The translations under genes were made by a program, and so were the position numbers. Source: Candidatus Cloacimonadota bacterium (lineage in GTDB: Bacteria; Cloacimonadota; Cloacimonadia; Cloacimonadales; TCS61). Taken from it: a DNA stretch of 35,617 nucleotides. The stretch spans positions 1 through 35,617 of the forward strand of contig JAYEKK010000162.1 in assembly GCA_034660955.1 (NCBI GenBank), read 5' to 3'. The notes beneath the pieces are model-generated. The model worked only from the letters and a program-made list of their open reading frames with translations. It did no database searches and was not told the origin of the DNA. How positions within the stretch are numbered: position 1 is the stretch's first letter; each line of letters begins with the position of its first letter. Shown piece after piece: positions 14,290 to 16,604 of the stretch.

Positions 14290-15033
14290 TTGAAGAAAAT
14301 TATTTTGTTTGCATTCATCTTGTTGATGTTGGGTTCTCTTTTTGCAGAAGATTATCTCGACATCAATTTTTTTATAGAACCACGGTTTGAGCATGACCAA
14401 ATAAATATGGTAAATTTTCTGGTTAAAAACATTAGGAATGATTCGATACGGCAAGTGAATGCTTTTGCTGGTCGGCTATTGGAATATCCGCAATCAGACA
14501 GCTTAACAGCAATGTTTATTAATGCGTTAGAACCCGAAATAATTTCTCCAGTAGATTATTTTTTCTATGATAAAAGTATTAACCACAACCTGCTTATTTC
14601 CAATATTGAGAGTGATTCAATTCCAATTATTAAGAATAAAATAATTCAATGTGATTCATTTAAGGTTGGGATATTTTCTCTTTATACACCGGATTTTGTA
14701 GTTAAGAATAAAATTGCCGATCATGTAAGATTGGATACTAAAGTTTTTGAAATTGCCAAGAAACAAGCAAAATTCTTAGAAAAAAAAACTGATTATGTTA
14801 TCATGCTTTCAAATTTAACTAAATATATTGATAATGACATAGTTAAGGATATTGAAGTCGATGCAGTTGTAAGTTTTGATTATCAAAAGAAAAGGAATGA
14901 ACTGCTTTCTAACAGGAACACGAATTTCTATAGTATTCTTACCAAAAATGGTAATTATGGGAAATTACGTTTAACATATCATAATGGAAAAGTTCGAGGG
15001 AAATGGAAAGAGATTGAGTTTGGAAAACCATAA
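14290..15033 (+). CDS. Exported protein resembling a degenerate 5'-nucleotidase/metallophosphoesterase N-domain
   Basis: TTG start after GGAG and a signal peptide (MKKIILFAFILLMLGSLFA). KVGIFSLYTP...DYVIMLSNL...EVDAVVS...YGKLRL follows the order of 5'-nucleotidase secondary-structure motifs but lacks the His ligands. Confidence 0.5.
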   Translation: MKKIILFAFILLMLGSLFAEDYLDINFFIEPRFEHDQINMVNFLVKNIRNDSIRQVNAFAGRLLEYPQSDSLTAMFINALEPEIISPVDYFFYDKSINHNLLISNIESDSIPIIKNKIIQCDSFKVGIFSLYTPDFVVKNKIADHVRLDTKVFEIAKKQAKFLEKKTDYVIMLSNLTKYIDNDIVKDIEVDAVVSFDYQKKRNELLSNRNTNFYSILTKNGNYGKLRLTYHNGKVRGKWKEIEFGKP

Positions 15034-15154
15034 CTCACCCTCTGTCCCTCTCTTCAAGAGAGGGAAGCCGGAGAAAATGTGAAAGAGAGAATATTCTTCT
15101 TGCACCTCTTAATTTCCCCTTCTTTTTTAAGAGAAGGGGTTAGGGGATGAGTCA
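15031..15154 (+). repeat. Palindromic direct repeat copy 1 (REP-doublet/REPIN-like)
   Basis: TAACTCACCCTCTGTCCCTCTCTT-C-AAGAGAGGGAAGCCGGAGAAAATGTGAAAGAGA...TTTCCCCTTCTTTTTTAAGAGAAGGGGTTAGGGGATGAGTCA. Two internal hairpins plus complementary outer ends ACTCA/TGAGT. Confidence 0.92.
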
Positions 15155-15512
15155 GGTAAGAACAACTGCAATTCAAACAGCACGAGATTTGAGACAAAAG
15201 ACAACAAAAGCAGAAAGTACTTTTTGGGAAGTCATCAGAAACAGAAAAATAGATAATTATAAATTCAATCGTCAATTTCCAATTTATTTTGAATACGAAG
15301 AACAAGAAAGATTTTTCATAGCAGATTTTTATTGTCACAAAAGAAGATTAATTATTGAAATAGATGGTGGGATTCACGAACAACAAAAAGATTATGATAT
15401 GCTAAGAACAGAAATAATAAATAAATTAGGATTTAAAGTTATTAGATTTAGTAATGAGTTTGTAATGAATAATTTGAGTACAGTTATTGCAGAGTTGAAA
15501 AGAAATTTATGA
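15147..15512 (+). CDS. DUF559 (Vsr-like, restriction-endonuclease fold) protein
   Basis: ARDLRQKTTKAESTFW, FNRQFPI, FIADFYC, LIIEIDGGIH, YDMLRT and LGFKVIRFSNE are the typical DUF559 motif series. Confidence 0.9.
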   Translation: MSQVRTTAIQTARDLRQKTTKAESTFWEVIRNRKIDNYKFNRQFPIYFEYEEQERFFIADFYCHKRRLIIEIDGGIHEQQKDYDMLRTEIINKLGFKVIRFSNEFVMNNLSTVIAELKRNL

Positions 15513-15634
15513 AAATTAACTCACCCTCTGTCCCTCTCTTGCAAGAGAGGGAAGCCGGAGAAAATGTGAAAGAGAAAAAAATCTTGAACTTCTCGATTTC
15601 CCCTTCTTTTTTAAGAGAAGGGGTTAGGGGATGA
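15509..15634 (+). CDS. Putative 41-aa linker mini-ORF reading through repeat copy 2
   Basis: [45 protein letters not shown] overlaps with the DUF559 stop and with the next ATG. Confidence 0.35.
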   Translation: MKINSPSVPLLQEREAGENVKEKKILNFSISPSFLREGVRG

Positions 15635-15638
15635 GTCA
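15517..15638 (+). repeat. Palindromic direct repeat copy 2
   Basis: Near-identical to copy 1 in both arms (hairpin TCCCTCTCTT-GC-AAGAGAGGGA). It differs mainly in the ~25-nt central spacer. Confidence 0.92.
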
Positions 15639-15699
15639 AGATAGAGAAGGTAAAAAAAATCGTTTCTCTACGAAAAGCCGATTAATTGTTAGGGGATGA
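15631..15699 (+). CDS. Putative 22-aa linker mini-ORF
   Basis: [26 protein letters not shown] overlaps at both ends, the second with the xerC start. Confidence 0.35.
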
Positions 15700-16604
15700 A
15701 TATGCAAAAAGCTATTGAAGAATTCATAAATACATTGATATCAAGGGGTCTGTCTGAGTATACAATAACTGCTTATAAAAAAGATCTTTTACAGCTTCAA
15801 GATTTCTTAACGAAGTATTTTGAAGATGGAGATGTAAAAGTTGATCAGATCACACGATTGTTTCTGCGTGATTTTCTGCGCTATTTAAGTATTAATGACA
15901 GGAATAACCGTACACTTGCACGTAAAGCAACAACTATGAAGAATTTCTTCCAATTCTGTGAAAAGAATGAATATCTAGTTAAAAATCCAGCTTCGAATCT
16001 CCACATTCCAAAATTTGAGAAAAACCTGCCAAAATGTTTCTCTGAAAAAGAGATGGAAGAATTATTGAATATCCCCGATCTCTCCAGTAAATTCGGAATC
16101 CGTAACCGAGCAATTTTGGAATTGATATATTCCAGCGGTTTAAGAATTAGTGAGATCTCAGGATGTAAAATAGGGCAAATCAATTTGCAGGAGAAACTGA
16201 TCAGAGTAATCGGGAAAGGAAATAAAGAGCGGATCGTGCCGATTAGCAGTAAAGCGAAAATTGCTATCAGAAATTATGAAAAAACACGCGAGCAGTTTGA
16301 ATCACGATTCAGTGATGATAGTTTCTTCTTATCAAAAAGCGGAAGACCGCTTTCTCCAAATGAGATTAGGGAAATATTATCACGTTACCTGAATTTAGTT
16401 GCAAAGACTAAAGGTTATTCACCACATACAATCCGTCATTCATTTGCAACTCATTTATTGGCTCGTGGAGCTGATTTAAGAGCTGTTCAGGAAATGTTGG
16501 GTCACACAAATTTATCTACTACAGAGATCTATACGCATCTTACTTTAAAAGATTTGAAAAAAGTGTATGAACAGGCGCATCCCAGAAGTGATAAGAAAGA
16601 TTAA
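15696..16604 (+). CDS. xerC: Tyrosine recombinase XerC/XerD
   Basis: [25 protein letters not shown] and [29 protein letters not shown]...TTEIYTH give the complete R-K-H-R-H-Y catalytic set. XerC versus XerD is not certain. Confidence 0.88.

Follow-up and report, generated by a model that had tools for sequence, protein, structure and literature searches.

A DUF559 nuclease gene bracketed by triplex-type hairpin repeats, a probable selfish cassette in a Cloacimonadota genome

A nuclease gene between two hairpin doublets

We analyzed a stretch of 35,617 nucleotides from a Candidatus Cloacimonadota bacterium (contig JAYEKK010000162.1 of assembly GCA_034660955.1; hereafter the window), in which an intergenic gene for a small DUF559 nuclease is bracketed by two direct repeats. 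The genome of origin, a metagenome-assembled genome (MAG) of 2.67 Mb and 93% completeness, is designated G000 below. An initial annotation of this DNA had described a 121-aa DUF559 gene between two ~123-bp direct repeats, each composed of inverted halves with a hairpin of their own, and this description was borne out (Table 1). The copies are 122-124 nt long and 91% identical (E-value 1e-43 in a search against the whole genome), and the gene product matches PF04480 with an E-value of 1.2e-32. Folding as single-stranded DNA, with a tool that handles hairpins and no triplexes, predicted two hairpins per copy (z = -2.7 for both copies; 2-3 of 200 shuffled sequences folded equally well). The arms are near-identical and the spacer has diverged, as had also been noted, the left 24 nt and the right ~40 nt being the same in both copies.

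Table 1. Features at the DUF559 locus, with positions in the window
Feature	Position	Strand	Remarks
Upstream host gene, 247 aa, without Pfam family	14290..15033	+	TAA stop (15031-15033) = first three bases of repeat copy 1
Repeat copy 1, inverted doublet	15031..15154	+	left arm, spacer, right arm
Copy 1 left arm	15033-15065	-	triplex-hairpin motif on the minus strand
Copy 1 right arm	15116-15150	+	triplex-hairpin motif on the plus strand
DUF559 nuclease gene (Vsr-like, PD-(D/E)XK), 121 aa	15147..15512	+	PF04480 match
Repeat copy 2, same doublet layout	15517..15638	+	left arm 15519-15552, right arm 15600-15634
Extra 65-nt piece after copy 2	15636..15700	+	bounded by an 11-nt duplicate of the arm end
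Downstream host gene, XerC/D-like tyrosine recombinase	15696..16604	+	PF00589 (E-value 6e-45), also PF02899

The coordinates also confirm that copy 1 takes over at the upstream stop codon and supplies a G-rich tract and the start codon of the DUF559 gene. The purine stem of its right arm is a Shine-Dalgarno (SD)-like tract 7 nt 5' of the ATG, and this stem and the adjoining third strand together provide the tract and the ATG. The start codon lies within the last bases of copy 1, and has the same position in an 87%-identical orthologue (locus L029). As the arms supply a stop codon at the left and, at the right, an SD-like tract followed by an ATG, insertion between co-directional genes may be tolerated.

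In the congener G077, the spacer of each copy matches that of the corresponding copy in G000, but the arm sequences are not those of G000. The arms are thus homogenised within a genome, by concerted evolution and not by simple conservation. An Rfam scan of positions 14800-15900 returned only sub-threshold chance matches, and thus points to no known RNA element in this interval.

Triplex-type arms and their association with DUF559 genes

In each arm, a pyrimidine stem pairs across a loop with a complementary purine stem; a second loop, of 3 nt, leads to a G-rich third strand that is the mirror image of the purine stem, with G opposite G and A or T opposite A. At the outer ends of the arms, one side reads CTCAYCC and the other GGRTGAG, and all four arms in the window satisfy the triplex-motif layout (7/7). 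Judged by the three-block layout, the arms are of the BoxC/PIT or "triplex motif" kind and not repetitive extragenic palindromes (REPs) of the RAYT type, which to our knowledge have no third mirror strand. The initial annotation had called the repeats REP doublets; the inverted doublet and the occurrence of gene-less copies stand, whereas the kinship to RAYT-type REPs gives way to the triplex-hairpin motif.

Genome-wide counts agree with this assignment. A finder for the layout returned 94 matches in G000 versus 1-2 in three shuffled genomes, and a finder for perfect mirrors returned 57 motifs in 40 clusters. Among 161 pyrimidine/purine hairpins of the genome, 57 were followed by a perfect mirror of their own stem, compared with 5.9% in cross-pairings; put differently, 82 tails mirrored any stem in the set, and 57 mirrored their own, where 12% would be expected. 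These mirror counts include copies by descent, which are not independent, and show consistency with the rule, not proof of it. The arm sequences vary between paralogues and between clades, with the mirror rule kept. As with BoxC/PIT repeats, the arms are multi-copy and dispersed, and their intergenic position was checked by eye at the displayed loci. The genome-wide occurrence at which the initial annotation had aimed therefore applies to the arms, as members of a dispersed family, and not to the complete doublet sequence, which is confined to the studied locus within the genome.

Some arms depart from the common form. A distinct subfamily in G000 has five C or G in its stem, with T or A on either side, and a second loop of 5 nt (sites C7:2325, C43, C44, C127, C176, C241, C243 and C297). 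At locus L186 (G075:C50) we observed a compact form, with one hairpin and a third strand on each side of it, at a site that holds a two-hairpin doublet in G000 (C311:11056-11124); the Calditrichota locus L036 is flanked by compact forms of this kind. In sequencing run X5, a brine metagenome, short contigs matching the right arm (window 15552-15679) reach a summed depth of more than 1000, and this right-arm variant appears to be very abundant across the brine community.

G000 encodes four DUF559 proteins, 57-60% identical and all above the PF04480 cut-off, and each of the four genes has arms on both sides, with its own arm sequence variant. The layouts differ: doublet-gene-doublet at the studied locus (C162), doublet-gene-right arm at C83, a more complex array at C311, and left arm-gene-right arm at C46, where the left arm has an imperfect stem and was missed by the perfect-motif finder. 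All four genes are co-oriented with both neighbours and occupy the interval from one stop codon to the following start codon. Thirteen of the 57 perfect motifs fall into the four clusters with DUF559 genes; the remaining 36 clusters have none.

Nine matches to Y1_Tnp, the HUH domain, were found in G000 (C87, C75, C61, C148, C310, C18, C24, C129 and C91), none within 1 kb of a perfect motif. Four of these genes were inspected (L204-L207), and each has flanking palindromes of its own that are unrelated to the triplex-hairpin arms. Given this distance and these other palindromes, the arms do not look like RAYT clients. The genome seems to house classical REP-RAYT-like pairs beside the DUF559 cassettes.

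Enrichment of repeats next to DUF559 homologues, which the initial annotation had predicted, was observed well beyond this genome. We collected 33 homologue loci from many phyla (Cloacimonadota, Ignavibacteria, Calditrichota, Bacteroidia, Edwardsbacteria, Cyanobacteria, Chloroflexi and others). A motif lies at a distance of at most 250 nt in 25 of them and on both sides in 16; the motif density is 5.09 per kb in the flanks versus 0.11 per kb at distances of 350 nt or more. In a comparison of 121 genomes of the order, arm-pattern counts and strong DUF559 matches are correlated (Spearman 0.53), and a strong DUF559 match is present in 23 of the 24 genomes with 10 or more pattern matches versus 30 of the 97 others, in a count that used one arm pattern, covering some variants only, and related genomes that are not independent. 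The PF04480 profile search had no match in E. coli despite the RefSeq annotation of ycjD as DUF559, and DUF559 counts may therefore be low.

In E. coli K-12, where one 40-kb stretch was inspected, ycjD runs into arm-like sequence and a full BoxC lies ~150 nt downstream. Within L096 (21030-21850), ycjD is followed by a partial duplicate of its own 3' end, a right-arm remnant and the full BoxC, in this order.

Gain and loss at orthologous sites

The intergenic site that separates the upstream gene from the xerC-like gene was compared at 30 loci, including that of G000. It is filled in four genomes (G000, G077, G115 and G089), holds a solo doublet of 117 nt in one (G075) and arm remnants in two (L077 and L081), and is empty, with a gap of 42 nt or less, in 14; five loci have other inserts and four could not be classed. 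Within the genus alone, G000 and G077 are filled, G075 is solo, and G073 and G079 are empty, so that the empty, solo and filled alleles anticipated by the initial annotation are all found at the studied site. Comparison of the empty locus L066 with the filled locus L064 places the cassette ends at CTCACCC and GGGATGA, the outer arm ends, without duplication.

The sites of the other G000 cassettes were compared as well. The C83 site is filled in none of 16 relatives and the C311 site in none of 29, with a lone left arm remaining at the latter in G073. The site next to dprA holds a cassette in G000, G075 and G087 and a decayed one in G073 and G066; in G097 it is precisely empty. In G073 and G066 the dprA-site cassette is mostly overwritten by other palindromic repeats, and other short palindromic repeat families occupy the same intergenic hot spots in relatives (L079, L146, L151, L116 and L117).

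Cassette identities at the dprA site cut across the host phylogeny. Between G000 and G053, which belong to different genera, the last 600 nt of dprA are 73.4% identical and the first 82 nt of the cassette 96.3%; between G075 and G087, likewise of different genera, the values are 73.4% and, over 157 nt of the cassette start, 96.2%. G087 and G053, which share a genus, have 94.2% identity in the last 600 nt of dprA versus 84.8% at the cassette start. Such incongruence speaks for cassette DNA having been exchanged laterally or converted, on the basis of compared stretches that are short.

Gene-less doublets occur at scattered positions in the genome, and three of them proved to be insertion polymorphisms within the genus. 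The doublet at C259 is missing from G073, G077 and G079, whose flanks are contiguous, that at C311:11056 from G111, and that at C218 from G075 and G079. All three have ends that coincide with the arm termini, AT-rich targets, contiguous flanks in the empty genomes and no visible duplication. A query with the solo site C226 returned only dispersed matches to the repeat family and was uninformative. No target-site duplication was seen at the three resolved junctions (L066/L064, L154/L145 and G111/G000). Gene and arms appear and disappear together, as one unit whose boundaries coincide exactly with the arms.

We also looked for rearranged forms of the locus in four sequencing runs, all as contigs, in which rare excision products would not be visible; no excision product or circle was seen. 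Two contigs contain joints with 37-nt sides, from 15151 to 15701 in run X7 and from 15635 to 15701 in run X2. Both stem from related strains (85-90% likeness) and repeat the solo and short-filled alleles already seen in the genomes, and they were rejected as evidence for excision in the source population.

The same contigs bear on a programmed switch, in which the inverted arms would serve as recombination sites for inversion or excision and would control the nuclease gene or downstream read-through. The arms are inverted repeats, the next gene encodes a tyrosine recombinase, and the annotation "DUF559 domain-containing protein" is over-represented (odds ratio 14.3) among the predicted targets of programmed inversion (PMC9881135). 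Nevertheless, no inverted form of the locus was found in the contigs examined, the one opposite-strand joint (X2) belonging to another contig context; the XerC/D-like gene is conserved beside the upstream gene in relatives without the cassette; and the other three cassettes have no recombinase neighbour. We consider such a switch very improbable.

The nuclease and its possible relation to the arms

The PF04480 match covers residues 9-119 of the protein and scores 112.5 bits against a cut-off of 20.6. Other than a sub-threshold match to REase_MTES_1575, Pfam gave nothing for it, and no DNA-binding family. The only solved relative found by sequence is PDB entry 3HRL (E-value 1.5e-16); 3R3P gave no sequence match at an E-value of 0.1 or better. 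Six residues (E23, D60, E71, D73, H77 and D84) are invariant in 14 homologues, YcjD included; their putative correspondence to Vsr residues follows the description in PMC3239194. A dN/dS of 0.12 relative to the 87%-identical orthologue at L029 indicates that the gene is under purifying selection. In the paralogue at C46 (L095, 1417-1830), a one-base shift near a T-run apparently affects the C-terminus, the +1 frame continuing like the C-terminus of the G075 orthologue, which reflects either early decay or an assembly error.

Purifying selection could also mean that the gene serves the host, as a Vsr-like repair or structure nuclease acting on mismatches or on replication blocks at triplex repeats, and lies beside the repeats for regulatory or historical reasons. 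The Caulobacter protein VsrA, which carries DUF559, causes an SOS response when the cognate cytosine methylation is lost (PMC12907096), and triplex motifs have been tied to genome instability by Holder et al. (2015; PMC4666352). The C5 cytosine methyltransferase family PF00145, by contrast, had no match in the 93%-complete genome, with a control search that matched 9 of 14 known genomes. This weakens the classical Vsr repair role of the kind proposed for VsrA, and the classical Dcm-Vsr pairing was set aside. Furthermore, G000 has four diverged paralogues, each within its own arms, and genomes of one genus differ in whether they carry the gene at orthologous sites, with alleles incongruent with the host. 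A host-serving role thus seems improbable to us.

The locus is probably one copy of a selfish cassette family, in which a DUF559 nuclease gene is bracketed by BoxC/PIT triplex-hairpin arms, and comparison between genomes supports this reading well. The initial annotation had proposed a repeat-plus-nuclease selfish system; the gain and loss as a unit now stands, and for the nuclease action on the arms we infer an enzymatic link from association and co-occurrence. It had named a unique repeat, a locus fixed and syntenic in relatives and a lack of flank enrichment as observations that would speak against such a system, and none of these holds. In the scheme that we propose, the nuclease would recognise the folded shape or the conserved end of the arm and nick there, and subsequent repair or recombination would copy or move the cassette as well as, in trans, the gene-less doublets. 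Such a partnership would be akin to the service of REPINs (REP doublets) by RAYTs, with a PD-(D/E)XK nickase as the enzyme. Recombination between the two direct doublets would remove the gene and leave a solo doublet.

Several observations weigh against the selfish-cassette reading. The basis for cleavage or excision by the nuclease consists of association and co-occurrence, and the source-like run X1 contained no joint at the locus. The arm subfamily with the five-C/G stem, at ~8 sites of G000, has no DUF559 neighbour in the assembly. At 8 of the 33 homologue loci the strict finder, which misses several arms visible by eye, detected no motif. Among the 121 genomes, 18 have a strong DUF559 match and two or fewer pattern matches, and six have five or more pattern matches without a strong DUF559 match; the limits of that count, given above, belong here as well. 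For the same-site cassettes of genera g1 and g13, vertical inheritance with losses could be the explanation. In addition, VsrA, a characterised DUF559 protein, is interpreted as a mismatch-repair nuclease (PMC12907096).

A different kind of selfishness also has to be considered, with DUF559 as a homing-type passenger that targets pre-existing doublets. The nuclease would cut gene-less doublets and the gene would be copied in through arm homology, without mobilising the arms, which would have spread, or been kept by the host, for another reason. Vsr-like nucleases are known as homing endonucleases, namely the EDxHD family with I-Bth0305I, whose Vsr-like catalytic core has conserved Glu, Asp, His and Asp and whose selfish genes recur at the same site in different hosts (PMC3239194). 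As described there, however, these enzymes sit in group I introns or inteins and have an N-terminal NUMOD or HTH region for DNA binding, whereas the DUF559 gene is free-standing, intergenic, 121 aa long and flanked by folded repeats. The left arm-gene-right arm layout at the dprA site resembles a gene set inside a doublet, mosaic cassette alleles are common to different genera at the same site, and a solo doublet is present at the studied site, all of which fits a passenger. So does the inspected E. coli K-12 region, with ycjD beside one BoxC, in a genome for which Holder et al. report 23 BoxC copies (PMC4666352). On the other hand, gene-less doublets have themselves inserted recently at AT-rich sites that are unrelated to each other, and some agent must therefore move them. 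The Y1_Tnp genes, with none of nine near a perfect motif and other palindromes at the four inspected, do not fill this place, and arm abundance follows the presence of DUF559. On balance, a homing passenger appears unlikely, less so than a host-serving gene.

The cassette shares traits with several known systems. Like the BoxC, PIT and TM_ECO repeats of Holder et al. (2015), the arms have a pyrimidine stem, a purine stem and a mirroring G-rich third strand; the same source describes those repeats as multi-copy and intergenic, present in many phyla and tied to local rearrangement, traits that we find comparable here. A further likeness is that the E. coli BoxC adjoins a DUF559 gene, ycjD. The arms studied here differ in that they are AT-richer, form inverted doublets and bracket a nuclease gene. 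Mobility functions were not found near triplex motifs according to that paper, from which the words DUF559 and endonuclease are absent (PMC4666352).

With the REP/REPIN-RAYT system the cassette has in common hairpin repeats in inverted doublets, few gene copies flanked by them and many gene-less copies, a repeat variant specific to each gene copy, and no visible target duplication; the flanked enzyme here is a Vsr-like PD-(D/E)XK protein and not a Y1 transposase of the HUH type. Miniature inverted-repeat transposable elements (MITEs) and small insertion sequences likewise end in inverted repeats, give rise to derivatives without the gene and are polymorphic in their insertions among close relatives, but the cassette has no transposase domain and lacks target-site duplications at the three resolved junctions.

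More broadly, it is possible, although we put it forward tentatively, that DUF559 nucleases are the missing partner enzymes of BoxC/PIT/triplex-motif repeats across bacteria, a Vsr-like nickase recognising the folded (hairpin or triplex) arm and spreading its own cassette together with gene-less doublets. For BoxC/PIT repeats, familiar since the 1990s, we are aware of neither a function nor a mode of spread, and we know of almost no assigned role for the very large DUF559 family. If the link between DUF559 and the arms is true, the repeats and the family would be explained together. It would also add a second enzyme class to the theme of repeats with a domesticated enzyme, so far resting on REP-RAYT, and a protein that may read non-B DNA structure. 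With the DUF559 nuclease as a candidate partner enzyme for triplex-motif repeats, the locus is a good entry point: the cassette is ~0.6 kb long and intact, and its empty, solo and filled states are found in one genus. We found no publication that describes the pairing of DUF559 with triplex repeats, in a search that left most subscription journals outside, so that its absence is not certain; the nearest printed hint is the enrichment of DUF559 among predicted inversion targets (PMC9881135).

Finally, the surroundings of the cassette deserve a brief description. Orthologues of the upstream gene are present in 46 of the 121 genomes of the order, G000 counted. The copies of the downstream recombinase gene in relatives begin at an ATG equivalent to window position 15702, just beyond the extra 65-nt piece. 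The 11-nt duplicate of the arm end around this piece lies at 15624-15634 and 15689-15699. The piece is missing from G077 (L064), from G075 (L063) and from the X2 contig that joins 15635 to 15701. It starts like the first codons of DUF559, and may be what is left of a third unit or tandem cassette.

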